From Pseudomonadota bacterium (lineage in GTDB: Bacteria > Bdellovibrionota_G > JALEGL01 > DATDPG01): a DNA stretch of 64,000 nucleotides. The stretch is from the NCBI GenBank assembly GCA_043809315.1, contig JAZDDX010000024.1, forward strand, positions 32,001 through 96,000, read 5' to 3'. Positions 16,627 to 32,977 of this stretch are shown here, one piece after another. The notes under the pieces are model-generated. The model made no database searches. It was not told the origin of the DNA and saw only the letters and a program-made list of their open reading frames with translations. The first letter of the stretch is position 1, and each line of letters opens with the position of its first letter. The position numbers and the translations under genes are program-made.

Positions 16627-17205
16627 ATTCGAAAAAACTCTCCATCGTGGTTCGTCTACATGATCGAGACCGATCGCCGGTTCCTGTACACCGGAATCAC
16701 CTCCGATCTCGAACGAAGACTCGCCCAGCACCGGAACGGGGAGGGGGCGAAGTTCTTTCGGACGCAGGCCCCCATGAAGATCGTCTACGTGGAGCGGTGT
16801 CCCTCCAAGGGGAACGCGTTACGGCGCGAGGCGGAAATCAAGCGGCTCTCACGGCAGGAAAAACAGAAGCTCACGAATGTTCGTGCTCCAAGATCCGTGT
16901 CGGACCTCGTTTACGCCTGGGTGAAACGGATTCCGCGAGGGCGCGTGATGACGTACGGTCAGATCTCAAACCTTTTGCACAAGAGGCTGTCGGCGCGGGC
17001 CGTCGGGTGGGCCATGCGCAACTCCCCGAAAGGGGTCCATTGGCATCGGGTCGTGAATGCATCGGGAGGCTGTTCCACCGACCGTCTTCCGGATGCGCCC
17101 GCAGGGCTTCAACGACACCTCCTGGAATCGGAGAGAATTGTGTTTCGGAGCGACGGGACGATCGACCTCGGAAAGTATCGTTGGGTTCCCAGAAAATTGG
17201 TATAG
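16627..17205 (+). CDS. GIY-YIG nuclease fused to alkyltransferase-like (ATL/MGMT-family) domain
   Basis: WFVYM...LYTGIT.DLERRLAQH...ALRREAEIK (YhbQ-like GIY-YIG), then RIPRGRVMTYGQI...ARAVGWAM...WHRVVNASG (ATL, Trp replaces catalytic Cys); first ATG is 16660, true start uncertain. Confidence 0.85.
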   Translation: MRKNSPSWFVYMIETDRRFLYTGITSDLERRLAQHRNGEGAKFFRTQAPMKIVYVERCPSKGNALRREAEIKRLSRQEKQKLTNVRAPRSVSDLVYAWVKRIPRGRVMTYGQISNLLHKRLSARAVGWAMRNSPKGVHWHRVVNASGGCSTDRLPDAPAGLQRHLLESERIVFRSDGTIDLGKYRWVPRKLV

Positions 17206-17471: not shown

Positions 17472-18512
17472 CTACCAAATCTCGTCTTTGAGGCGGAGAT
17501 ATTCGGCCCAGGCGGTGGACTCAAAATCAAAGAGGTTCTTTTGTTTTGAAAATGCGGTTTCGGCCTCCCGAAGCAAGACCTCCAGCCCGATCCGGTTGGG
17601 GGTACGCGGGGCGAGATATCGCCCAAAAAGAGTCGGATTCGAATGTCGGAGGTCGACGACGTATCTCGCCGTGTGGCGAAGAAAAAGTGGAAGGAGAATC
17701 ATCGGTCGATCTTTGGGGAACACCAGCTTCTCCCCGTACCGAGAAACGAGAGCACGCATCGTTTTGAGGTCGTTCGTATAGGCGTTCAGTTCATCCAAGA
17801 GGGAGAGAAGATTGATTTTCGGGTTGGAGAAATACATCTCCTGGGTCTCTTGGAGCTTTCTCGCGTGGATCGGATCGTTTGCGGCAAGGGGGGGGAGGGT
17901 TGGGATCGAAGCGGAAGGGAGGTCGGCTCCAAGATCGAAGCAAAGCGTGTTGCGATGGGGTGCGAAGAAGAGGCAGGAGTTTCGGCGAAGGGCGTGTGTC
18001 AGTTCGTGAACGGCGTAGGGAAGGAATTCCAGGTCGAGATCTCCCTTGGGTTTTCGGCAGCGGATCCAGCGGAGGGGGCCGATGTCGAGATCGTTCCAGG
18101 CCCAGGGGCGGGTTTTTCGAAATTCTTCGAAGACCGTCTTTGCTGTGGGTTCGGCCAGGGTGTGGATTGTTTTCGTAGCTTCCAGGAGGCAGGGGCCATC
18201 GTCTGCCGACGGCTGTACCCGGTCGCCGATCATGAACGCGGACGGTGCGCTCGCATGGAGGGGGTCGCGATAGATGACCACCTCCATTGTCTGGTTCAGG
18301 AGAAAGACGGCTTTCCAGCAGTGGTTTTCTTGAAGCAAGGCCGGAGCCTCTTTCATTCCTTCCGAAAAGTGGGTGAGAAAGTCGCGGACGGCCGCAAGCT
18401 CGTGGTCGATTTCTTGTTGGGAGAGACAGTGTTGTGCGGACGGTGGTGGCGCGGGACGAGACGGAACGCAGGCGGAGAGCAAGCAGGCGACCAGAATGGA
18501 TTCGCGCTTCAT
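17472..18512 (-). CDS. Lipoprotein with HExxH zincin-like motif
   Basis: Lipobox LSAC; VHELTHAL plus downstream DELNAY; starts 16 bp after last RHS core gene. Confidence 0.55.
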   Translation of the reverse strand: MKRESILVACLLSACVPSRPAPPPSAQHCLSQQEIDHELAAVRDFLTHFSEGMKEAPALLQENHCWKAVFLLNQTMEVVIYRDPLHASAPSAFMIGDRVQPSADDGPCLLEATKTIHTLAEPTAKTVFEEFRKTRPWAWNDLDIGPLRWIRCRKPKGDLDLEFLPYAVHELTHALRRNSCLFFAPHRNTLCFDLGADLPSASIPTLPPLAANDPIHARKLQETQEMYFSNPKINLLSLLDELNAYTNDLKTMRALVSRYGEKLVFPKDRPMILLPLFLRHTARYVVDLRHSNPTLFGRYLAPRTPNRIGLEVLLREAETAFSKQKNLFDFESTAWAEYLRLKDEIW

Positions 18513-18528
18513 TCTCGATTGTCCACGA

Positions 18529-19773
18529 CTACGGGTAATATTTCTTGATGAATTCCTGGGGTGACAGGGGCTTGCCGACTTGCATCCACATGTGTTCGCC
18601 TCCGCCGAAAAACGTGTTCAAGGAGGCTTTGACGGCGTCGAGATTTCCAGCCGTGAGCGGTGCGGAATAAAATGGCTTCCCCCTGTAGATCTGCACTCCC
18701 ACGGGGGCGATGATCGGTGTGTTGTTAAGCGCCTTATCAAAGAACTCCGTCTCGTGGGTCATCATCATAGGGAGTACTTTAACCTCCCTCTTCCACGTTC
18801 CCATTCTTTCGACCGCGCCCTTCATCTCGGCGACTTTCTCCAGCACATCCTGTTTTGCTCCGACCCAATTGATCGGCGTCTTCTCGACGATCGACGCTTC
18901 CCTCACTCCAGCCCTTTCGAAATGACTCAGGATCCTGCTAGCCGCTTGCCCGGTGGCACCATAAAGAGGATTCGTAGCGCCCATGGCCAGGTTCATGTTC
19001 GCGCGGAACTTCGGATCCACGGCCATGCGTGTGGCAAAATCGACCGACATCTCTTCTACGATGGTCGGTGCCTTTGCTTCAACCGTCACGCCCGGGAGTT
19101 CGATCGGGTTACAATCCGTGCCTTTCGGACATGGTTGAGCGACATACGTCGACGCGGCGGCGGTTGAGAACGACCACGTCGGGTCGCTCTGCATCCCGCT
19201 CACATCCGTGTTGTTGATTGGATCGTTGTCGGCGTAGGCGTAGTGATTGAGCTTTACAATCTCCTTTCCTGGCGTGATCGGATCGGGGGAGATGAAGCGC
19301 GAAAGCGCAGGATCGTAATACCTTGCGTGGAGATAAAAAAGACCGGTCGACGAATCTTGCCTCTGTCCCGTGTAGCTCAGCGATTCGGCATAGCTTCCCG
19401 TTTTGGAAAGTGGTTCGCCATACGGCTTGTAAGTCGTCGTTAGCGCTGGCGATCCATCGGGTTTAGAGACGAGATGGATTGAGTCTTGGTAATCGGGATG
19501 GAGCCAAACCTTGTCGTACGTCGCGACGGTTTGTTGAGTACAAGTGGTCTGTGTGCCGCCGGGAGCCGCGGCTTTGGTTGTCCACTTCCTGCTGATCGTG
19601 CCGGGGGTCGTTGTGGATGTGGAGCAGACGGTCTGGGTGGTGGTGTTGGCGACGACCTCTTGAAGAGGTCCGGTCGGCCCCATCACGTAGATCGTGGCGG
19701 CGGCGTAAGCAGCCGAAGCGGAAAACGTCAGTCCCATCAGAAACGAAAAAAGGATTCTTGATTTCATGGCCAT
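18529..19773 (-). CDS. Signal peptide + RHS-associated core + unknown C-terminal payload (cartridge 3)
   Basis: SP ending ASAAYA; HPDYQDS, YKPYGE, YTGQRQD..TGLFYLHARYYDPALSRFISPDP, YAYADNDPINNTDVSGM; 220-aa unique tail. Confidence 0.9.
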   Translation of the reverse strand: MAMKSRILFSFLMGLTFSASAAYAAATIYVMGPTGPLQEVVANTTTQTVCSTSTTTPGTISRKWTTKAAAPGGTQTTCTQQTVATYDKVWLHPDYQDSIHLVSKPDGSPALTTTYKPYGEPLSKTGSYAESLSYTGQRQDSSTGLFYLHARYYDPALSRFISPDPITPGKEIVKLNHYAYADNDPINNTDVSGMQSDPTWSFSTAAASTYVAQPCPKGTDCNPIELPGVTVEAKAPTIVEEMSVDFATRMAVDPKFRANMNLAMGATNPLYGATGQAASRILSHFERAGVREASIVEKTPINWVGAKQDVLEKVAEMKGAVERMGTWKREVKVLPMMMTHETEFFDKALNNTPIIAPVGVQIYRGKPFYSAPLTAGNLDAVKASLNTFFGGGEHMWMQVGKPLSPQEFIKKYYP

Positions 19774-22340
19774 TCTTTTTGAATTCGTATTATGTCCCCG
19801 GCAGCAGCATCACCATTTGCCAAGCTTGGAACGCTCCCCTACTTTCAAGACGTCCGACCAAAAGGGTGCCACCGGGTATTCCGCCTGGACACCTCCCGGA
19901 ACCTTCAGACTGAATATGGCCTCTTTCACCTCCTGCCCTCCAATACGTACGTTGGTCCAATCCATCCAGTATGTGTTCCCCGTTTTGGAGGACCAGAGCT
20001 CAAGAATGGCGTGCCCTATCTCTTTCTCAGTATTTGCTGCTGCGTGGACGGTAGGGAGATATCCTTTCGTAGCAGCTCTGGCGCCGGCCTTTATGCAAAA
20101 ATGGCGACATACGCCGCCCGCCTCCTTCACCTCCCTTGTAGCTCGGGCGGCAATCTTGCTCAGTTCGTTCACTTCCGGCAATGCTTTACTCAGATAAACG
20201 GCCCCTTCTCCCTCCGGCAGAACGGCCAACGAAGCAATCGTTCCGATTACCTCGAATTTGGTCCACTGCCTGGCGTTCATCTCTCTTTCGTAGAGATTCT
20301 TTGCATCGAAAGGACCGGGAGCTTGCGGCGCCGCACCCTGTTTCAGTTCAGGCGTTATCGAGCTCCTTGCAAGATAACCCATCCCTCCTGCGGCCTTTAT
20401 CTCCAACAACTGCTGTGGAGTTAACCCGCCAACACCGGTAGACGAGGCAACAGCCGTCGATTGCATCCCGTTTACGTCTGTGTTGTTGACCGGATCGTTG
20501 TCGGCGTAGGCGTAGTGGTTCAGTTTGACGATCTCTTTTCCCGGCGTGATCGGGTCGGGAGAGATGAATCTCGAAAGCGCGGGATCGTAATACCTTGCGT
20601 GAAGATAAAAGAGGCCGGTCGAGGAATCTTGCCTCTGTCCGGTGTAGCTCAGCGACTCTATATGGCTTCCTGTTTTCGAAAGTGGTTCGCCATACGGCTT
20701 GTAAATCGTCGTTAGCGCTGGCGATCCATCGGGTTTGGTAACGAGATGGATGGAGCCTTGATAGTCGGGATGGAGCCAAACCTTGTCGTACGTCGTGACG
20801 GTTTGCTGGGTGCAGGTTTGGGTGCCCGTGGTGCCGCCCGCAGATGCAGCCGCTTTGGTCTTTATCTTATTGAGCGCGATCGTTCCGGACGCGGTCCCGG
20901 AACTCGTGCAGACGGTTTGAGTCGTGGCGTTGGCGACGACCTCTTGAAGAGGTCCCGTCGGTCCCATCACGTAGATCGTTGCAGCAGCATGGGAAAGGGT
21001 GTGGAAGAAGAGAATTGCGGCCCAAACAGGAAACTTGTTTCGATAATTCGTTTTCATAAATTACGGATGGTGTCCCCCGAAATCATTTTCTCGCCATCGC
21101 ACAGTAAAAGAGGCAGCCGATTCCAAAATTCAAAGCGGTTCCGGCGGTCGTGAGAATGTTCTTGTCGATTCCAGTGTTTTGGGAGATGCGAGCAATGTCG
21201 CTCGTCGAACCCTGTGAATTGATCACGTAGTTCAGGAGGGATGCCCCCACGGACAGACCGGCCAACGCTCCCATCGCGTTACCAAATGTCGTATTCTTGG
21301 AGCCAAAATCCAACGATCCGCTTCGAGCGAGGGCAGTCAGCCCCAGGAGTTTTCCGGTGTCGACTGCATAGGGAGCGGCGAGCATGGCTGTGTGTTTCCA
21401 CCCCTCGAGGGCTTTCTCGCCGGTGAACATTCCGGCGGCGCCGGACTCGGGATTGAACTCGATCTTCTCGTACCCGCCCCCCAAAACGAGGCTGGCCAGA
21501 GCGTGGGACCCCTCGTGAACCGCCGTGTCCAGATACTCGAGCCCGGGGGTTTCATTCATTATTACGTACGGCACCGCCGGAGCCGTGGCTAAAGGTGTCA
21601 TGAGATTCCCTAGAGCAGCGACAGTGGGTCCGGGGAACAGCGGGCTCGTAAAAAGAGCTTTCGGGCTGTCGAAGGTGAGCTGAATTCCCAGGACTACCCC
21701 TCGTTCTCGGTTCGTGCCGACAGAAAAGTCCAACGTCGTCCGGCCTAGGTCTGAGGAGGGATCCTTCTTCTCTTCCCCTTGCATTCCGCTCACGTCCGTC
21801 TTGTTGACCGGATCGTTGTCGGCGTAGGCGTAGTGGTTGAGTTTGACGATCTCTTTTCCCGGCGTGATCGGATCGGGAGAGATGAATCTCGAAAGCGCAG
21901 GATCGTAGTATCTCGCGTGGAGATAAAAGAGCCCAGTGGACGAATCTTGCCTCTGTCCCGTGTAGCTCAGAGATTCGGCATAGCCTCCCGTTTTGGAGAG
22001 CGGTTCGCCATACGGCTTGTAAGTCGTCGTTAGCGCAGGCGATCCATCGGGTTTGGTAACGAGATGGACCGAGCCTTGGTAGTCGGGATGGAGCCAGACC
22101 TTGTCGTACGTCGTGGTGGTTTGTTGGGTGCAGGTCTGGGTGCTCGTGGTGCCGCCCGCCGATGCAACCGCTTTGGCTTTCATCTTATTGAGAGCGAGCG
22201 TTCCGGACGCGGTCCCGGAACTCGTGCAGACGGTTTGAGTCGTGGCGTTGGCGAAGACCTCTTGCAGAGGTCCCGTGGGCCCCATGACGTAGATCGTTGG
22301 CGAGGCGTAAGCAGCCGAAGCTGAAAACGTCAGCCCGACC
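19192..22340 (-). repeat. Three dispersed ~0.5-kb near-identical RHS core segments (approx. 19192-19740, 20464-20985, 21782-22340)
   Basis: Shared DNA such as ggatcgttgtcggcgtaggcgtagtg, gaatcttgcctctgtcc, ggttcgccatacggcttgtaa and ccttgtcgtacgtcg in all three; similarity ends at the GM codons. Confidence 0.92.
19810..21057 (-). CDS. Signal peptide + RHS-associated core + transglutaminase/papain-like payload (cartridge 2)
   Basis: SP ending LSHAAA; same core ending DPVNNTDVNGM; 217-aa tail with GVCRH...GHA...YWMD. Confidence 0.88.
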   Translation of the reverse strand: MKTNYRNKFPVWAAILFFHTLSHAAATIYVMGPTGPLQEVVANATTQTVCTSSGTASGTIALNKIKTKAAASAGGTTGTQTCTQQTVTTYDKVWLHPDYQGSIHLVTKPDGSPALTTIYKPYGEPLSKTGSHIESLSYTGQRQDSSTGLFYLHARYYDPALSRFISPDPITPGKEIVKLNHYAYADNDPVNNTDVNGMQSTAVASSTGVGGLTPQQLLEIKAAGGMGYLARSSITPELKQGAAPQAPGPFDAKNLYEREMNARQWTKFEVIGTIASLAVLPEGEGAVYLSKALPEVNELSKIAARATREVKEAGGVCRHFCIKAGARAATKGYLPTVHAAANTEKEIGHAILELWSSKTGNTYWMDWTNVRIGGQEVKEAIFSLKVPGGVQAEYPVAPFWSDVLKVGERSKLGKW

Positions 22341-22375
22341 AGGAACGGAAGAAAGGTTCTCGGTTTCTTGGCCAT
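21083..22375 (-). CDS. Signal peptide + RHS-associated core + M50-like metallopeptidase payload (cartridge 1)
   Basis: RBS GAGGGAG before ATG 22375; SP ending ASAAYA; core ending DPVNKTDVSGM; 232-aa tail with VHEGSHAL, AAPY, SD and hydrophobic helices. Confidence 0.88.
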   Translation of the reverse strand: MAKKPRTFLPFLVGLTFSASAAYASPTIYVMGPTGPLQEVFANATTQTVCTSSGTASGTLALNKMKAKAVASAGGTTSTQTCTQQTTTTYDKVWLHPDYQGSVHLVTKPDGSPALTTTYKPYGEPLSKTGGYAESLSYTGQRQDSSTGLFYLHARYYDPALSRFISPDPITPGKEIVKLNHYAYADNDPVNKTDVSGMQGEEKKDPSSDLGRTTLDFSVGTNRERGVVLGIQLTFDSPKALFTSPLFPGPTVAALGNLMTPLATAPAVPYVIMNETPGLEYLDTAVHEGSHALASLVLGGGYEKIEFNPESGAAGMFTGEKALEGWKHTAMLAAPYAVDTGKLLGLTALARSGSLDFGSKNTTFGNAMGALAGLSVGASLLNYVINSQGSTSDIARISQNTGIDKNILTTAGTALNFGIGCLFYCAMARK

Positions 22376-22383
22376 TCTCCCTC

Positions 22384-25300
22384 TCACTGTGGAATCTCGA
22401 CGAGACCTCCTTCTAGATACAACGTTGTTTTGGTCGGGGTGGAGAGCTTGAGCCGCTGACTGTTCCCGTCATACGTGAACGTCGTGCCCAAGCCTGCGGG
22501 GCAGGCCTCGCCGGTCCCCAAGAGCGCCTTGCAGTGCTCCACCGGGTAGTTCTCGACGTCGTATCGGATCGTGGCGGGACTGTTCTTGGCGACGTCCCAG
22601 TGGGTTGTCATGTTTCCGTTCAAGTCGTAGCCGTAAGTCCCGCTCACTCCTGAAACCGTTTTCACCGCGTGAGGGATCGCCGAACCGGACGACGGATACG
22701 TCATCGTTCGGGTCAGGCTACCCACTTTCTTCTCGGTCAGGTTTCCGATCGAATCGTACTTGTAATACTCCGTGTTCGGATCGCCGGTGTTGCCGTTGTA
22801 AACCGCATCGGTCAGGCGGTGGAGCGAGTCGTACGTGAAGCGCCAGGGACCCCGGACGGTCAACATCCCCTCCTTGTTGCGGTTGGGACGGCCGTAGTCG
22901 AGGTTCTGCACCGAGCAGGTGTTCTTGGCCTCCGTCTTTTTCTGTGTGCAGATCTTGGTCAGCCATCCACGCGCGTTGTCGTACTCATACGTGGTCTTGT
23001 TGGGGTTCGGGCTCGCGTACACCTGTTCCTTGATCTGCCCGTCGGCATAGTAATCCGCCGACTCCATCGCCCCTGAGACGTAGTTCATGCGACCCAGAGG
23101 ATCGTAGCCGTAGCTGTAGTTGAACGGGATGTTTCCCAGATAGTAGTCCTTCAGCACCACCCGCCCGCTTTTATCGTACGCCTGGGAGAAGGCGTACCAG
23201 GTCAACCCCACTTTCCGATTCGTGGTCCGGAGTCTTCCCAGGGCGTCGTAGTTGTAAAGCTCCTCCCCATGCGGATCGACCATTTGAGTCAAGCGCCCGA
23301 GATTGAAATACCCCGATCGCTGCTGGTCGTAGGCCCATCGGCTTCCCGTGTACGAAGAGCTGTTCTTGTCAGGGAAAAGTTTCTTTTCAACCTTCCTTCC
23401 GATCGGGTCGTAGCCATATTCGACTTTCTGATTTTGATTGTCTTCCGCACGCGTTAGCTGTCCTCGGTTGTCGTATGTAAAGTTGGTTTCTCCCCGGTCG
23501 GGATCGAGCTCTCTCGTCAACAAGCCGCGCGAGTCGAACCAGGTCTCGGTGACGTTCTTTTCCGTCGGGTCGGTGATCTTCTTCAGATTTCCCAGCGAAT
23601 CGAACTCGTACTTCACGGGGAGAGCGGTCGTTCCCAGATTTTCCGTGTGCGTGACGATCTTTCCCCGCGCGTCGTAGATGTCGCTGGTTTCATGACTTTC
23701 CTCATCCCAGTACGTTGTCTTCAAAAACGCCAGGCTTGAAGAACTCTGGGGTTGGTACTCATAATCGGCCCGAACATTGGCGTTGTCGGGATAGAGGAGT
23801 TTGATCGGACGGTTCAGGGTGTCGTACAGAACGAAGCTGTAGACCGGAGACTCTCCGGACTCGTAAGGTCTCGACTTCGCTCGTGCGAGTCCCCGCGAGT
23901 CGTAGGCGGTCTGTGAAACGATAATCTTGCTGCCGGAAGCACTGCTCCCACTTTCGGTCCAATAATTTCTTCCAAAACCGTCCATGTATGCTTTGGTCCA
24001 AGTTCTGCCGTTGGTTTTTCCCGGGGCGGCTTGAGGAATCGGTCCGGTGGTTTTTGTGTGTTGAATCGCCGGGTTTCCGAAGTTTAGGTAAGAGGTCTGT
24101 TGGTACTCGCCGAACGGATCGGTCACCTTCGTTTCTCGGCAGAAACCGTCATAGTCGGTTTTGGTTTCTTGGCCGTTCGGATCTTTGACCGACGAGGGTG
24201 CTCCACAAAGATCCTTGTAGATCGTTGTCGCAACGATGTTTCCACGGTTCGTAGCCCCTTCCTTAGTGAAATTGGAAAGAGGGTTCGGTCGATATAGATC
24301 GCAATCTCCCGGATCCATCGCCGGCGTCAGCGACGACAGCAAGTTGTAGGCATTCTGAACGGAGCAGGTCAGGAAGAGATGGTACGTCTTGTCGTACGCA
24401 TGGAACGTCGGGAAGCCGAGTTCGTTCACCTCCTTGGTCAGGTTGCCGTAGACATCGTAGTCGAAGGATCTTGTCGTATCTTTGACAACAGACCAGGCGT
24501 CCCCGTTCCGTTCGTAGACATAAGTCTTCTGGCTTTTTATATTTCCGACTTTTCCGTCCCCTTCACCCTCCTGAAAATAGGCGTTTTCCGCCTTCGAAAT
24601 CGGTCCCACGAGAGTTGTCGTCCCCTTCATGACCTCTGTTTTGATGGCGCGATCCACGCGATAGGTAGTCGCGTTGTTCTTCGTCTCGTACGTATAGACT
24701 GTGGTTTGATCGTCCGCGGGATTGTCTAAGCTTTGGGACCAAAGACCGTAGTCCTTCTGGCGGAGGACGTTGCCGAAGTTTCCGGCGTTACTGCATACGT
24801 CGTAGATCGTCTCCGTCCGGGTCATGGTTAGTGGGTTGGAAGAGGCGCTTGCCTCCTTTCCGAAATACCATTGCCGGACATCGGACGGCACGAAAAGAGA
24901 CCAGTAAGGATCGCTGTAACGGACCGTGGTCCCGCCTCCACCGCCGCTCCCCCCTCCGCTGCCGGGAGCCGTAGCGCTCTGAATGAATCCACCCCCTCCG
25001 CCGGTGGTCCAGGTGTAGATCCCCCACAGCTCGCAATATCCGTACACGGTCTCTTGGAGGGGAGTCCCTCTCGGATATCCTTGCCAGTACGTGGTTGCGA
25101 TCGGCCGGCCGGCACTGTGGAAGCCCTGGTGGTATTCGGTCTCGACATATGTCGGGAGTTCTTCAGTACTTGCCAGTTCCTGTTGGGTCTGGGGAAGGCG
25201 AACGATCACTTTTTGGAAACCCAACGACTTCTTCCGAACAAAATCGTACTTTCCCCCTTCGTAGCTGTACTCGGTTACCGACGGATAATTACAGGCGCCT

Positions 25301-27897
25301 CCATACACACAGTTTCTCCCGTCAAAGACCGATACTGTCTGGACCGTCTGGACCACCGGTAACCCGACCTGATTCCCGGGCCACGCGGTGGACGGCGTGT
25401 ACGAAATCTCCGTTTTTCCCCCGAGCGGTGTTGTGATGAGATGAATTACGTCCTTGGAGGCGTTGGATTGGAGAAGATACGTCTTGGACTGGGTAGAGCT
25501 ATGCACAGCTCGCCCGACCAGATCGGTCGTGCCTCTCCCTAGGAAGTCTCCCGCGCTGATCCGTTTGTAGTTGCTCGAAAAACTGTCGCCAGAGAGGGTT
25601 TGAATCTCGTTGCTGCCGATCACGCGGACGATATGGATCCAGGGATCGCCCACATCGGTGTTGGGAGCTTGGAGAATCGCCTCCGCTTTTCCGTCGCCGT
25701 TGACATCTCCCACCTGAATCGCCCGCTCGTGCCAGTAGATGTCGTTTGAAGAAAGAAGATCGACACTCGGAAGATTATTATTGCTCCCTTCGAAGACACC
25801 CCCCCCTTGGTTGGTCAGGAGATAGTTCCCGGATGAGAGAGTACTGGGAGTTTTCTGAACCAAGAGATCCAGAAGACCGTCTCCATTGAAGTCGCCCGGA
25901 ATTAAGTTGTGGTATTTCGGATTGGAACTCCCGAGCGGGTTCTCCAACACCTTCGAGCCGATCCCGCGAACGCCGATCAAAATTAGGTAACTGTCCGAGG
26001 CGCTTAAATTGTCCCAATCGCTTTCCTCTTTCAAGAGGATGTCGGTAACCCCGTCCGCGTTAAAGTCACCGGGGATCCATGCATGGGTCCTCCACGCTCC
26101 GTTCAACGAGGATCCCAGCAGGCCCGATCCGCTACCCACCTGAAAAAGTTTGTCACGGAACGTGTTCGACGGTCCGTTCAGAGCGAGAAAAACCGTGCCC
26201 GACCCACTCAGTCGCCCGAAAGACCTGTTTCGCACCAGGAGGTCGGTCCGGCGGTCGCCGTTGAAATCCCCCGTCACAATCTCCCAATTGAAAGCGTCCC
26301 AGTTCTCCACGTTGTTCGTGCACCAGAACGACGTGTTTAGCGGCTGCTGATTACAAATCCAGGCATCCCCATAACTGAATTGATCTCCCAGGTTCCAAAT
26401 GCTTCGGCTCGCGTCCTCCGCAGGCAGGAAAATGGTGTTGTCGCCCGAGGAGAGGAGAAGCCAGGGGCGAAAATCGGGCCCTCCGTCACAGTTCGGAATT
26501 ACATTTGCACCATCTATTGTCGATCGTGCCGGTTGGAGAAGGATGTCGGTCCGGCGGTCGCCGTTGAAATCTCCCGTAAGAATCTGCCCCGTCACTCCCG
26601 CCATCCATTTGCACCTGTTCATTCTTCCATCTTTGCAGGTGGGACAGGGATGCTCCGTGATGTCTCTCAATGTGAATCCGCCGTCGGGGGTCCCAAGGGC
26701 CAGGTAGGTCTTATCGAAGATCGAACTCTTGAGCAGAAGATCACTCCGGCCGTCGCCGTTGAAATCCCCCGTCGCCACTTGGCGGTACTCTCCTGCCCAG
26801 GTTCCTGGGGAACCGCCCGTGACATCCGTTAGAGACATCGCGCCGGTCTGATCGTTCTCGTACCACTCGAACGTCGTTGGCGGGAGCGTCGATCCGTCCG
26901 ACCCAACCTGGGTCACGGTTTTTAAAAGGGAGCGGCCGCTGACTTTGCTCGGGTCGTAGGTAAGATTGTACGTGGAAGCCGTGATTCCGTTGATCTTCAC
27001 GGTAACAGTGGAGAGTCTCCCCGCAGTGGTTAAAACCTGTGTTGCGTCGGTGAAATAGACAGGATCGGGACGGCTTGGATAATCACTTGGATAATCAAAA
27101 GAGACTTTGATCTTTGCGGATGGGAGCGCAAGGGTGGGCTGGGATACCCACTCCAACGGGATTCCATCGTATCCGACCTTCTGCAGTCCTTCCGTACAGT
27201 CGGCCTGATATACAACAATCGCGCCGTTCGGATGCTCGACCCGCTCCAGTCCCCACCGGAACGTCTGGCCGTTCTTTGCTCTACAAATGCTGTCGTAAAC
27301 AGCTTTGGTCCCATCCTTCCGCCAGACGATCCAGGTTCCGTAATCCTCATTCTTTTCCACGCGCTGAAACGATTCGTTCAGCGGGGAGTAATGCTTTTCG
27401 GAATTTCCTCCGAACGCATCTACGTTCTTGCAGGTCGGGCTTTTTGCCAGCTGGTCTTTGCAGCGGGAGAGGACTTCACCATCCAGATAGTAGACATCCG
27501 TAGCGTCGTACTGTGGCAGCGTATGCCACGGCCCTTTCCGTTCGATCGTGCTGTAGCCCGACAAAGACCAGCCGACGCCGACCGGACCGTTTCCGCCGGC
27601 GGAGTTATACGAAAGCGCCAGGCTCGGTTGAATGCCGTAATACGAAGGGACGGAGATCGGAACCGAGTACGAAAACGTTCCGCTGGAACCCGAGACGTTC
27701 TGAGCCACTTCGGGGAGTTTGTTCGGCATGTCCTTTGGGAACGTGTCTGGATCAACCCCCGTGGTTCCTGTCGTTCCCGTCGTCCCTGCTGTCTGTGGTG
27801 GGGGAGGAGAAGTTTCGGTGTTCGCTGGCACGGTTGCGGCATTCGAAACCGCAAAAGAGAAAAGAACGGCGACGGCGCAGATCGCAAGGGAATTCAT
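22384..27897 (-). CDS. Secreted SpvB / FG-GAP / TcdB-mid / YD-repeat (RHS shell) protein lacking the RHS-associated core
   Basis: RBS AGGAG before ATG 27897; signal peptide; SpvB-like PSLALSYNS.GGNG..GVGWSL; seven GDFNGDG-like repeats; many YD repeats; ends YDGNSQRLK...TTLYLEGGLVEIPQ-stop with no RYYDP or DPxG. Confidence 0.9.
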   Translation of the reverse strand: MNSLAICAVAVLFSFAVSNAATVPANTETSPPPPQTAGTTGTTGTTGVDPDTFPKDMPNKLPEVAQNVSGSSGTFSYSVPISVPSYYGIQPSLALSYNSAGGNGPVGVGWSLSGYSTIERKGPWHTLPQYDATDVYYLDGEVLSRCKDQLAKSPTCKNVDAFGGNSEKHYSPLNESFQRVEKNEDYGTWIVWRKDGTKAVYDSICRAKNGQTFRWGLERVEHPNGAIVVYQADCTEGLQKVGYDGIPLEWVSQPTLALPSAKIKVSFDYPSDYPSRPDPVYFTDATQVLTTAGRLSTVTVKINGITASTYNLTYDPSKVSGRSLLKTVTQVGSDGSTLPPTTFEWYENDQTGAMSLTDVTGGSPGTWAGEYRQVATGDFNGDGRSDLLLKSSIFDKTYLALGTPDGGFTLRDITEHPCPTCKDGRMNRCKWMAGVTGQILTGDFNGDRRTDILLQPARSTIDGANVIPNCDGGPDFRPWLLLSSGDNTIFLPAEDASRSIWNLGDQFSYGDAWICNQQPLNTSFWCTNNVENWDAFNWEIVTGDFNGDRRTDLLVRNRSFGRLSGSGTVFLALNGPSNTFRDKLFQVGSGSGLLGSSLNGAWRTHAWIPGDFNADGVTDILLKEESDWDNLSASDSYLILIGVRGIGSKVLENPLGSSNPKYHNLIPGDFNGDGLLDLLVQKTPSTLSSGNYLLTNQGGGVFEGSNNNLPSVDLLSSNDIYWHERAIQVGDVNGDGKAEAILQAPNTDVGDPWIHIVRVIGSNEIQTLSGDSFSSNYKRISAGDFLGRGTTDLVGRAVHSSTQSKTYLLQSNASKDVIHLITTPLGGKTEISYTPSTAWPGNQVGLPVVQTVQTVSVFDGRNCVYGGACNYPSVTEYSYEGGKYDFVRKKSLGFQKVIVRLPQTQQELASTEELPTYVETEYHQGFHSAGRPIATTYWQGYPRGTPLQETVYGYCELWGIYTWTTGGGGGFIQSATAPGSGGGSGGGGGTTVRYSDPYWSLFVPSDVRQWYFGKEASASSNPLTMTRTETIYDVCSNAGNFGNVLRQKDYGLWSQSLDNPADDQTTVYTYETKNNATTYRVDRAIKTEVMKGTTTLVGPISKAENAYFQEGEGDGKVGNIKSQKTYVYERNGDAWSVVKDTTRSFDYDVYGNLTKEVNELGFPTFHAYDKTYHLFLTCSVQNAYNLLSSLTPAMDPGDCDLYRPNPLSNFTKEGATNRGNIVATTIYKDLCGAPSSVKDPNGQETKTDYDGFCRETKVTDPFGEYQQTSYLNFGNPAIQHTKTTGPIPQAAPGKTNGRTWTKAYMDGFGRNYWTESGSSASGSKIIVSQTAYDSRGLARAKSRPYESGESPVYSFVLYDTLNRPIKLLYPDNANVRADYEYQPQSSSSLAFLKTTYWDEESHETSDIYDARGKIVTHTENLGTTALPVKYEFDSLGNLKKITDPTEKNVTETWFDSRGLLTRELDPDRGETNFTYDNRGQLTRAEDNQNQKVEYGYDPIGRKVEKKLFPDKNSSSYTGSRWAYDQQRSGYFNLGRLTQMVDPHGEELYNYDALGRLRTTNRKVGLTWYAFSQAYDKSGRVVLKDYYLGNIPFNYSYGYDPLGRMNYVSGAMESADYYADGQIKEQVYASPNPNKTTYEYDNARGWLTKICTQKKTEAKNTCSVQNLDYGRPNRNKEGMLTVRGPWRFTYDSLHRLTDAVYNGNTGDPNTEYYKYDSIGNLTEKKVGSLTRTMTYPSSGSAIPHAVKTVSGVSGTYGYDLNGNMTTHWDVAKNSPATIRYDVENYPVEHCKALLGTGEACPAGLGTTFTYDGNSQRLKLSTPTKTTLYLEGGLVEIPQ

Positions 27898-28033
27898 ACA
27901 GACTCCTTCTGTAGCTGGGAAAAATCTGAGACGTTCGAAACTTTCTTTCACGCAAGAGCTCGTTTCAGTTCGAACGGAGAAAGCGAACTGGATTATAGGA
28001 TGGTTCTGCTTCGACGCAAGGCGGAACTTGAGC

Positions 28034-31681: not shown

Positions 31682-32977
31682 TCACTCGCTTCGTTCTTCG
31701 AACGCCCCCGCGACGCGGATGAAGATCAGGATCGCCACGATGGCGAGGAGCATGTGGACCCCCAGGACATACCAGACATATTCCGGGTGGCCTCCGTTCC
31801 GAAAATATCCGGATAGCGTCGTGTAGATGACGCCGCTCGTGAGGCCGCCGATCGCGGTTCCCAGGAAGTTCGATCCCATATAAAGTCCCGCCTTCTCCTT
31901 CGGGGCGATCCAGGTGATGTACTCCTGGATCCGCGGGGAGGCGGTCATCTCGCCGAAAGCAAAGAGGGCGATCCCGAGAATCGCGAGACCCACGCCCGCA
32001 TCTCGGGCGAATCCGATGACGAAGAACCCGATCCCCATCATCGCGAGGCCGGACAGGAAGGTCGGCAGCGCGCGGAACTTCTCGATCGTTTTCGAAACGG
32101 GGACTTGAAGAACCATGATGATCCAGCCGGTGTGCGCGATCGTCTCGCCGAGGATCCGACGAACCCCGTTTTCATCAGTGTGGGAGAGGAAGTCGGCGAC
32201 CGGAGCCCCGACCCACGTGCGGATGAAGTCGTAGAGGGCTGCGCTGTTGAGATCGCTGTCGAGATAGACCGCGCAAAGGTTGAAGAAGGCCCAGAACGGA
32301 AGCCAGAAAAAGACGCCGAGCATCCCGAGAAAGACGGCGAATTTAACATCGGTCAGCGTGCTCCCGATATCCCGGAGCTTTTGACCGAGCGTGGTCCCCT
32401 CCCGTTCCCGCGGAGGCTCTTTATAGAAGAAGATCGTGACCAGCAGCATGAAGAGGATCGCGACCGCCGCGGAATAGAAGGCGTAGTCCCAGGAGATGGC
32501 GCGCAGTTTGCCTGCCACGAGCGGGCCGAACGAGGCGCCGAGGTTGACCATCGCGTAGAAGATCCCGAACCCGAGCGTCTTGTTGGTCCCGTCGGTGACG
32601 CTCCGGACGGTCCCGGCGATGAGCGGTTTGAACATCCCGGCCGCGAACCCGATCGAGAGCATCGTGAGCGCGATCCCGGAGAACGATTTCGCGAGGATCA
32701 GAAAGAGAATCGTCGGGAGATAGGCGAGGTACGAAATGATCAACATCTTCTTGAACCCGAACCGGTCGGCGAACGATCCGGACAAAACCGGCACGGTGTA
32801 GGAGACTAAAAGGAAGATGCTCTGGATGATCCCCAGGCGGTCGCGGGAGAAGCCAAGCTGCTGCATGTAGATCCCGAAACCGAAGTAGATGCCGTAGTAG
32901 GCGAATCGCTCCAGAACCTCGATGGAGTTGGCAACCCAAAATACTCGTGGAAACGGTGTGCGCTTGGACGTCGACAT
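31682..32977 (-). CDS. MFS transporter, proton-dependent oligopeptide (POT) type
   Basis: EVLERFAYYG (ExxERFxYY), FYAMVNLGA, multi-TM. Confidence 0.88.
   Translation of the reverse strand: MSTSKRTPFPRVFWVANSIEVLERFAYYGIYFGFGIYMQQLGFSRDRLGIIQSIFLLVSYTVPVLSGSFADRFGFKKMLIISYLAYLPTILFLILAKSFSGIALTMLSIGFAAGMFKPLIAGTVRSVTDGTNKTLGFGIFYAMVNLGASFGPLVAGKLRAISWDYAFYSAAVAILFMLLVTIFFYKEPPREREGTTLGQKLRDIGSTLTDVKFAVFLGMLGVFFWLPFWAFFNLCAVYLDSDLNSAALYDFIRTWVGAPVADFLSHTDENGVRRILGETIAHTGWIIMVLQVPVSKTIEKFRALPTFLSGLAMMGIGFFVIGFARDAGVGLAILGIALFAFGEMTASPRIQEYITWIAPKEKAGLYMGSNFLGTAIGGLTSGVIYTTLSGYFRNGGHPEYVWYVLGVHMLLAIVAILIFIRVAGAFEERSE

Follow-up and report, generated by a model that had tools for sequence, protein, structure and literature searches.

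A core-less RHS shell gene followed by three leader-bearing core cartridges: a proposed Sec-dependent, two-part RHS cocoon

In the BC subcomplex of the toxin complexes (Tc), one protein, TcB, has an SpvB domain, an FG-GAP propeller, a TcdB middle region and RHS repeats, and a separate protein, TcC, has the RHS core, an autoprotease and a hypervariable toxin. To our knowledge, Tc subunits have no signal peptides and assemble in the cytoplasm. According to the accessible text of two papers, one TcB can take alternative TcC subunits (PMC11067744; PMC7861908); the second of these also states that TcC has 851–1050 amino acids (aa) in 97.2% of cases and that the cargo limit is about 40 kDa. Tc toxins are released by lysis, as the accessible part of another paper has it (PMC10847048). 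Here we describe a related locus in a window of 64,000 nucleotides (nt) from a bacterium of the GTDB lineage Bdellovibrionota_G (positions 32,001 to 96,000 of contig JAZDDX010000024.1, assembly GCA_043809315.1). A large RHS gene, which we will call the shell, lacks the RHS-associated core. It is followed by three short genes, the cartridges, each of which has its own signal-peptide-like leader, the whole core, and a different tail. We propose that they form a Sec-dependent, TcB/TcC-like two-part RHS cocoon with alternative cartridges, which is completed after export. We give this proposal a probability of about 0.6.

Other described systems resemble this locus in part. Judging from Table 1 of Zhang et al. 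2012 (PMC3482391), there is a class of contiguous proteins with a signal peptide, SpvB, a propeller and RHS repeats. This class has the same domain order and the same kind of Sec signal peptide as the shell, and includes its nearest relatives. But those proteins carry the core and the toxin on a single chain, whereas here the chain is cut before its last hairpin and the distal part is present three times, each time with its own leader. [quoted passage not shown] These are contiguous proteins, and the accessible accounts of them describe no separate core-bearing cartridge. Finally, the orphan rhs-CT/rhsI modules of Enterobacteria (accessible part of PMC3150448) place a conserved core piece and a variable toxin in tandem downstream of a large rhs gene, as is seen here. 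Unlike the cartridges, they have no start codon or export signal of their own, they come with immunity genes, and they share their core with the main gene for recombination. Orphan modules of this kind in Enterobacteria are reportedly also the subject of work by Koskiniemi from 2014.

All four genes of the locus are on the minus strand. Their features are as follows (positions are those of the window, and a slash marks a predicted cleavage site):

22384–27897, minus strand: shell gene, 1837 aa plus stop, with a signal-peptide-like N-terminus, SpvB, FG-GAP propeller repeats, TcdB_toxin_midN and RHS/YD repeats, and without the RHS-associated core (by open reading frame (ORF), Pfam, NCBIfam and a local hidden Markov model (HMM) of the core).
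27838–27897, minus strand: putative shell leader, MNSLAICAVAVLFSFAVSNA and then ATVP, with a hydrophobic h-region and an SNA/A site (by sequence).
22387–22428, minus strand: last strands of the shell (..TTLYLEGGLVEIPQ), by alignment to the contiguous protein G001:C114 and by predicted edge pairing with the first strand of the cartridge.
22373–22386, minus strand: junction between shell and cartridge 1, consisting of TGA (22384–22386), the 8-nt spacer GAGGGAGA, and the ATG of cartridge 1 (22373–22375) (by sequence).
21083–22375, minus strand: cartridge 1, 430 aa, with a leader (residues 1–24), a block of residues 25–199 (21779–22303) that contains the hairpin, a Thr/Ser-rich insert with cysteines, and the RHS core to GMQ, and a tail of 231 aa.
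19810–21057, minus strand: cartridge 2, 415 aa, with its own, different leader, a conserved block (20461–21057), and a tail in which a C-R-H...G-H pattern is conserved and which has a homolog in the tail of cartridge 1 on contig C5.
18529–19773, minus strand: cartridge 3, 414 aa, with a leader, a conserved block (19189–19773), and a tail homologous to the tail of cartridge 2 on contig C5.

The full ORF of the shell spans 22384–27951. Its likely start is the ATG at 27897, so that the protein begins MNSLAICAV; a GTG at 27951 is an alternative. The shell matches SpvB (PF03534, E = 4e-17), FG-GAP (PF01839) and FG-GAP_3 (PF13517) (both about 1e-19), TcdB_toxin_midN (PF12256, 3e-13), RHS_repeat (PF05593, 2.7e-29) and, from NCBIfam, YD_repeat_2x (TIGR01643, 1.9e-16). 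This order of SpvB, FG-GAP propeller, TcdB middle region and RHS repeats is the domain order of TcB. Neither TIGR03696, the model of the RHS-associated core (at E ≤ 0.01), nor our local core HMM matched the shell. The protein ends with ...FTYDGNSQRLKLSTPTKTTLYLEGGLVEIPQ and the TGA at 22384–22386, and a GTG at 22385–22387 overlaps this stop.

Each cartridge matches TIGR03696 (E about 1e-24) at residues ~115–198, with the onset of the core at ~115–119. The first ~199 residues are near-identical across the three cartridges, and directly after DVxGMQ the tails are unrelated. The spacers are short: 8 nt between the shell and cartridge 1, and 25 and 36 nt between the cartridges. All seven cartridges of this genome (see below) keep the motif ..NxxDVxGMQ, which we take to be a variant of the DPxGL-type RHS cleavage motif. 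Similarity stops there, and a variable tail of the toxin type follows; cleavage is predicted at this point. A first-pass annotation of this DNA, made from the letters alone, had described the 1837-aa SpvB/FG-GAP/YD protein without a core and three following genes with their own starts, leaders, whole cores and unrelated tails. The ORFs, the Pfam, NCBIfam and core-HMM searches and the alignments bear out that description.

Compared with Tc toxins, the split is displaced by about 600 residues: it falls that much later than the split between TcB and TcC. TcC carries a large share of the cocoon, while the cartridges have only 414–430 aa, with ~95 mature residues before the core. Their tails of 199–231 aa are below the cargo limit of ~40 kDa that the accessible text gives for Tc toxins. 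Also, all parts have Sec-type leaders here, and the three cartridges form a single operon-like tandem row.

We mapped the split point by aligning the two parts separately to a contiguous RHS protein from the same family (G001:C114). The end of the shell aligns to ...FFYDGDGVRIKK..TTVYFGDG. The start of the mature cartridge, PTIYVMGPTGPLQEV, aligns to the very next strand, TKKYISFNGIPVAEK, and the cartridge's YDKVWLHPDYQGS aligns to TRFLHADRLGT. Because the two parts match consecutive strands of the contiguous protein, the break lies between two adjacent strands, and the first-pass annotation was right to place it between adjacent beta-hairpins. Relative to the contiguous form, each cartridge has two additions: a leader of ~24 residues before the strand and an insert of ~45 residues in the turn after it. 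The insert is rich in Thr, Ser, Gly and Ala. In cartridge 1, it spans residues ~45–87 (22116–22243), and it is in the same place in all seven cartridges. It has two conserved cysteines in the cartridges of this locus and a CxxxxC...CxxC pattern in those of the other two loci (contigs C28 and C5), and it is absent from the contiguous relative.

We judged the leaders with a crude test of the n-, h- and c-regions (a basic n-region, a hydrophobic h-region, and small residues at −3 and −1). In this genome, all seven cartridges and two of the three shells pass, as against 394 of 1,658 crude gene calls. The predicted cleavage sites of the seven cartridges are ..AAYA/S, ..LSHA/A, ..AAYA/A, ..LAFG/A, ..SSSA/I and ..SAFA/Q (twice), and no leader has a twin-arginine motif. 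Within a locus, the leader sequences are only 17–71% identical, yet the leader feature is retained, which is how signal peptides evolve. For instance, cartridges 1 and 2 share 5 of 24 leader residues, while their next 94 residues are 88% identical. The conserved block therefore begins exactly at the predicted cleavage site. Furthermore, a contiguous parent would be one Sec substrate, and cutting it before the last hairpin would create a need for a second export signal; every cartridge has one. To us, this is the strongest argument from sequence that the leaders are functional rather than incidental. So the signal peptides that the first-pass annotation saw on all four proteins are matched by leader-like N-termini on all parts, with a reservation about the shell that we give below.

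The same arrangement recurs in this genome, a 2.42-Mb draft in 44 contigs that is 96% complete. It has eight core domains, and seven of them are in short ORFs behind three core-less SpvB shells: three cartridges at the locus in the window (contig C24), two on C28, and two on C5. The shells of the three loci are 36–37% identical over their last 800 aa, and the loci have 36–61% identity. All three shells end at the same strand, ..YDGNxQRL..(T/S)(L/I)YL(D/E)GG..E. The stop codon of the shell and the start codon of the first cartridge are 8 nt apart on C24 and overlap on C28 (TGATG) and C5 (ATGA), and such spacing is usually a sign of translational coupling.

The eighth core belongs to a fourth RHS locus, at C38:22083–29047 (locus L109 2084–9039, minus strand), which is cut elsewhere, after the SpvB domain. 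There, a leader-bearing SpvB protein of 293 aa shares 4 nt with the start (a GTG) of a protein of 2025 aa with FG-GAP, TcdB-midN, RHS and core regions, and this second protein begins with a lipoprotein-like leader. That a cut at another place also left a leader on each piece suggests that extracytoplasmic assembly of RHS proteins from separately exported parts may be a general habit of this lineage.

Among 40 related genomes, four are from the same family, and all of them have RHS cores:

G001: six contiguous RHS proteins of 2080–2595 aa.
G002: a row of six short ORFs, each with a leader, YD and core, on a short contig (C13), as well as contiguous forms.
G003: a core-less shell of 1674 aa gives the sole SpvB match that exceeds the family cut-off; 8 nt later there is a leader-bearing 734-aa protein with its core at residues 380–465, and a second such protein, of 740 aa, lies 1.6 kb further on.
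G004 (complete, one contig): one SpvB shell, which has 1963 aa and is core-less; all three cores of the genome belong to adjacent leader-bearing proteins, which have 488, 519 and 565 aa.

As G003 and G004, from sister genera, have only core-less shells and separate core proteins, their cores can come only in trans. In G002–G004, 10 of 10 cartridges and 2 of 2 shells pass the crude leader test, although the test was lenient here, with start codons chosen to pass. The cut point varies between genera and lies ~95, 150–200 or ~380 residues before the core. In G004, the 565-aa cartridge is upstream of the shell and ends 10 nt before the shell's ATG. In the 488-aa core protein of G004 (locus L030 11996–13459, minus strand), the tail is TseH-like (PF25218, E = 2.6e-14). 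Here a Sec-type cartridge carries a domain of the T6SS-effector type, which hints at bacterial targets. Core-less SpvB/YD genes beside leader-bearing TIGR03696 genes, which the first-pass annotation had proposed to look for in other genomes, are thus found at two more loci here and in G003 and G004. It had also noted that the idea would fail if homologous loci were always contiguous; those on C28, on C5, in G003 and in G004 are split.

These loci bear on two simpler explanations. In a draft of 44 contigs, the split could be an artefact of assembly or sequencing. But the same break at three diverged paralogous loci, on three contigs, argues against an assembly error, and the split system is also present in the complete, one-contig genome of G004, so we give an artefact hardly any credence. 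The shell and cartridge 1 might instead be made as one polypeptide, by frameshifting or read-through, given the 8-nt distance or the overlap between stop and start. However, ATGA and TGATG overlaps are ordinary coupling signals. Fusion would also bury a hydrophobic leader of 24 residues at a place where contiguous relatives have none, and it would not account for cartridges 2 and 3, or for the cartridge of G004 that precedes its shell. A fused product seems very improbable to us.

The cartridges are maintained as genes. We compared the nonsynonymous (dN) and synonymous (dS) divergence of cartridge pairs within each locus. For residues 25–118, dN is 0.05–0.19 and dS is 0.21–0.83; for the core, dN is 0.01–0.12 and dS is 0.23–1.68. 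Both the N-terminal blocks and the cores are under purifying selection. The tails also have homologs across loci, in the same order: the tail of cartridge 2 is 35% identical to that of the first C5 cartridge (E = 2e-19), and the tail of cartridge 3 is 37% identical to that of the second (E = 9e-39). This conservation across loci indicates that the genes are long-lived. (The tails of cartridge 1 and of the first C28 cartridge have only an HExxH patch in common.) The region on the side of the plug tracks the locus, with 72–90% identity within loci and 41–47% between them, while the tail tracks the toxin type. This pattern fits the duplication of whole loci with long retention. By sequence, the locus-specific plug region fits either per-locus matching of plug and shell or gene conversion, which are not distinguishable here.

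Selection also bears on whether the cartridges are classical orphan rhs-CT modules, that is, a silent reservoir for recombination, or the remnants of a decaying RHS gene. As in the accessible account of the orphan modules (PMC3150448), a tandem core block with a variable tail lies downstream of a large rhs gene, and the first 480–600 nt of the cartridges are direct repeats with 66–89% identity. However, these repeats (D1 and D2) set in with the start codons and lie wholly within the cartridges; they include none of the shell gene, and the shell has no core sequence to recombine with. Every cartridge has a start codon and a leader, and the 5' boundary is uniformly at the start codon. Immunity genes are missing, dN/dS is clearly below 1, and tails are 35–37% identical between loci. 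In the other taxa that we examined, true orphan fragments begin raggedly and are usually leaderless (33 of 35 short frames on genome contigs, and 14 of 14 on metagenome contigs); the two leader-bearing exceptions, L096 and L098, are stand-alone short RHS proteins and not fragments. We therefore consider it quite improbable that the cartridges are orphan modules or remnants.

We also asked how widespread this form is. The nearest homologs of the shell outside this genome are contiguous signal peptide–SpvB–propeller–RHS–core–tail proteins of ~1900–2000 aa with ~30% identity (P0155–P0163). Among the 120 shell homologs listed, the local HMM finds the core in 108. The 12 without it are the three shells of this genome and nine others, at least two of which are named as partial. 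Another leader-bearing protein, P0250 (1736 aa), ends with ..YDGEGVRLSSSTGGSTTGYL, near the same split point, and may be cut by a contig end. We compared a profile of the N-termini of the seven cartridges to 1.84 billion representative proteins. Six proteins cover the whole profile (312–359 bits), and the next match has 164 bits and covers the core only.

Of 56 short matches to the profile that we examined, 12 pass the leader test, and eight of these form a second class (P0039, P0050, P0053, P0064, P0077, P0081, P0089 and P0102). They have 432–502 aa and come from Joint Genome Institute (JGI) metagenomes, on contigs of 7.7–43.7 kb. After the leader, they continue with the strand SFxYDxxGxRIK, so they are cut one hairpin earlier. 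(For P0050 and P0102 alike, the longest contig reported has 13,876 nt, so they may be two cartridges on one contig.) A scan of metagenome contigs with the alignment of these eight proteins gave 79 loci, all without a hydrophobic leader upstream: 34 are contiguous forms, 31 run into a contig end, and 14 are short frames. In a phylum-wide search with P0064, centred on a Myxococcota metagenome-assembled genome, at least 5 of 301 genomes had matches at E ≤ 1e-20, and these counts are a floor. There were seven matches: five are in long frames, and the other two (453 and 754 aa) are each at a contig end. A second scan, of genome contigs, returned mostly contiguous RHS proteins or ragged orphan fragments, from Alphaproteobacteria and Myxococcota.

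The first-pass annotation had suggested modeling the shell with a cartridge. We modeled residues 1038–1837 of the shell with residues 25–200 of cartridge 1 as two chains, each with its own alignment, in three runs and with three controls. The interface score (ipSAE) is 0.90 in each run, and the best control has 0.00. The mark for this score is reached by 58 of 80 solved complexes and by 2 of 110 mismatched pairs, a calibration that is only rough for our models, which used custom alignments. At least 96% of contacts are common to the runs, and the predicted local distance difference test (pLDDT) score of the partner is 79–80. The confident contacts include those of shell residues 1829–1836 with cartridge residues 25–34 (1832/1833 with 29) and those of the core with the inner wall. 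In these models, then, the first strand of the cartridge would complete the sheet at the last strand of the shell, which is the strand completion that the first-pass annotation had expected. As the shell and cartridge are halves of a family with solved structures for contiguous RHS proteins and for TcB–TcC, the score shows a fit to a known fold, and not binding of separate chains.

We also considered that the cartridges might be self-sufficient, small, Sec-secreted toxins. The ~175-aa hairpin and core would then be only an autoprocessing pro-domain, and the shell would have a separate role, such as adhesion, or none. Short leader-bearing core proteins without a visible adjoining shell do exist, namely the eight JGI proteins and the array of six ORFs in G002 (C13), and we found no immunity genes or delivery component. 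But the eight JGI proteins need not be free of shells. Where shells are seen, in the three paralogous loci and in G003 and G004, they are intact and always adjacent and coupled to cartridges. A lone core has no cocoon to close, and this alternative seems inconsistent with a mature cartridge that begins exactly with the strand missing from the shell and that the models bury against it. We consider self-sufficient toxins unlikely.

Under the two-part cocoon that we favour, the shell, with its signal peptide, SpvB, FG-GAP propeller and RHS repeats, would be exported via Sec and would fold outside the cytoplasm into a cocoon without its last hairpin and closing plug. Each downstream gene would encode a cartridge equipped with a cleavable signal peptide of its own. 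Once mature, the cartridge would start with exactly the missing strand and continue through the RHS core (plug and aspartyl autoprotease) to a toxin tail of ~215–230 aa. After export, the first strand of the cartridge would pair with the last strand of the shell, and the core would close the cocoon with the tail inside, either in the periplasm or outside the cell. Autoproteolysis by the core would follow ..DVxGM/Q. One shell type could be completed by any of the three cartridges, much as TcB can be by several TcC. In a parent that was a single Sec substrate, the shell would emerge first, then the core, and then the tail, and the late cut would keep this order. Separate export, assembly in trans, and alternative payloads for one shell were already the reading of the first-pass annotation. 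The leaders, the recurrence and the models support it in silico, and we infer the export and the binding.

More tentatively, and at somewhat short of even odds, we suggest a fuller picture in which RHS cocoons are completed and loaded after Sec by two molecules. The open shell would capture the ~175-residue module of hairpin and plug and draw the unfolded tail in. In this lineage, that would amount to a cartridge system, with several payloads per shell, matching of plug and shell at each locus, and possibly a hand-on to a dedicated type II secretion system (T2SS).

The genomic context is compatible with a T2SS. From the end of the split locus on C5 (C5:22323–40777, a shell and two cartridges; loci L108 and L111) it is 86 nt to a downstream operon for type II secretion that runs in the same direction. 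Its genes are, in order, T2SSC/PDZ (gspC), the GspD secretin, GspE, GspF, GspG, three N-methyl pseudopilins (one of them T2SSJ-like), and GspK. Another secretin of the GspD type is upstream, at C5:14838–17243, and the genome has four secretins. We found no TssC/VipB in the genome (the E. coli control was positive). The activity of the RHS bacteriocin Bcn-A of Xanthomonas perforans depends on the T2SS secretin and is lost in a mutant of the T2SS gene xpsD (PMC7259588). Taken with the gene order, this suggests that passage across the outer membrane may be by the T2SS.

Several observations weigh against our proposal. The gsp genes adjoin only one of the three split loci, and a folded cocoon may exceed the size of the T2SS secretin. 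The TcA families PF18276 and PF03538 have no match in this 96%-complete genome, yet none of the 14 control genomes gave a match in these searches either. The crude leader test is a weak discriminator, as 24% of the background gene calls pass, and the shell on C24 fails it, though only on the charge of the n-region; the paralogous shells on C28 and C5 pass. The insert (residues 45–87) makes no confident contact in the models of the complex and has no part in our proposal. The models may score highly because the fold was remembered, and not because separate chains bind. The six proteins that cover the whole cartridge profile are this genome's own (by length; three also by sequence), so the exact variant is very rare. 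And there is no immunity-like ORF in the 25- and 36-nt gaps between the cartridges, which would be unusual if bacteria are targeted. The lack of immunity genes suggests that the targets are not kin, or that the cell protects itself by never folding the toxin in the cytoplasm.

We learned little about the tails themselves. The tail of cartridge 1 has an HEGSH motif and a match resembling Peptidase_M50B, the only Pfam match for the tails at E ≤ 1. Searches of the tails against PDB sequences were empty or non-significant. The tail of cartridge 3 belongs to no family that we found, and sequence-database searches returned only cartridge 3 itself. The leads from structure atlases all have template-modeling (TM) scores below 0.5, with cartridge 2 weakly transglutaminase-like, and AlphaFold2 models of two tails have mean pLDDT of 30.8 and 35.8.

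Three further features lie beside the cartridges:

17472–18512, minus strand: lipoprotein-like ORF (MKRESILVACLLSAC..) of 346 aa, with an HExxH motif (HELTH), on the strand of cartridge 3 and 16 nt downstream of it; its membership in the system is uncertain.
21059–21077, minus strand: motif half-site GGGGACACCATCCGTAATT, 1 nt upstream of the ATG of cartridge 2, which is half of a genome-wide palindromic motif.
19782–19799, minus strand: motif half-site GGGGACATAATACGAATT, 8 nt upstream of the ATG of cartridge 3, a second copy.

The 346-aa ORF has no Pfam family and no paralog in the genome. We considered it as a conserved immunity gene and rejected this: it is unlike the gene after the C5 locus, and it has no counterpart after the homologous C5 cartridge. 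The dispersed motif, GGGGACAC(A/C)ATAC.NATTT, has 16 pattern matches in the genome, and several inverted pairs form perfect hairpins. Besides the window, sites are at C5:29104, C16:94919/94943, C5:18144/18177 and C22:14818/14854. Single half-sites stand just upstream of the starts of second and third cartridges at the C24 and C5 loci, and also in the spacer on C28. A scan for promoters and terminators gave the same counts as shuffled sequences (5 vs. 4.4 and 16 vs. 15.9, respectively). The neighbors of the RHS locus in the window are unrelated housekeeping genes. Separately, an ORF of 181 aa at 16660–17205 (plus strand) joins a GIY-YIG nuclease domain to the DNA-binding domain of O6-methylguanine methyltransferase.

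In the full-text literature, mostly outside subscription journals and supplements, we came across no account of a secreted shell that lacks the core and is accompanied by core cartridges with signal peptides, and the terms "split Rhs", "bipartite Rhs" and "two-component Rhs" did not occur in the papers returned. The first-pass annotation's view that the architecture is undescribed stands to that extent, but one shell with alternative cargo subunits is already known from Tc toxins. What is new here is the Sec route, the very late split, and a signal peptide for each cartridge.

For RHS and Tc cocoons, the way in which the toxin enters is understood only where folding is cytoplasmic and involves either a single chain or two large half-shells. 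If our proposal is correct, then encapsulation can be bimolecular and can follow translocation, with a near-complete shell closed in trans by a small plug, and the shell and cartridge would be a tractable protein pair for studying the closing step. Our proposal would also explain why short "RHS core" ORFs have signal peptides, and such ORFs should then not be annotated as fragments. For bacteria without a T6SS, it would suggest that RHS toxins can take a Sec/T2SS route.

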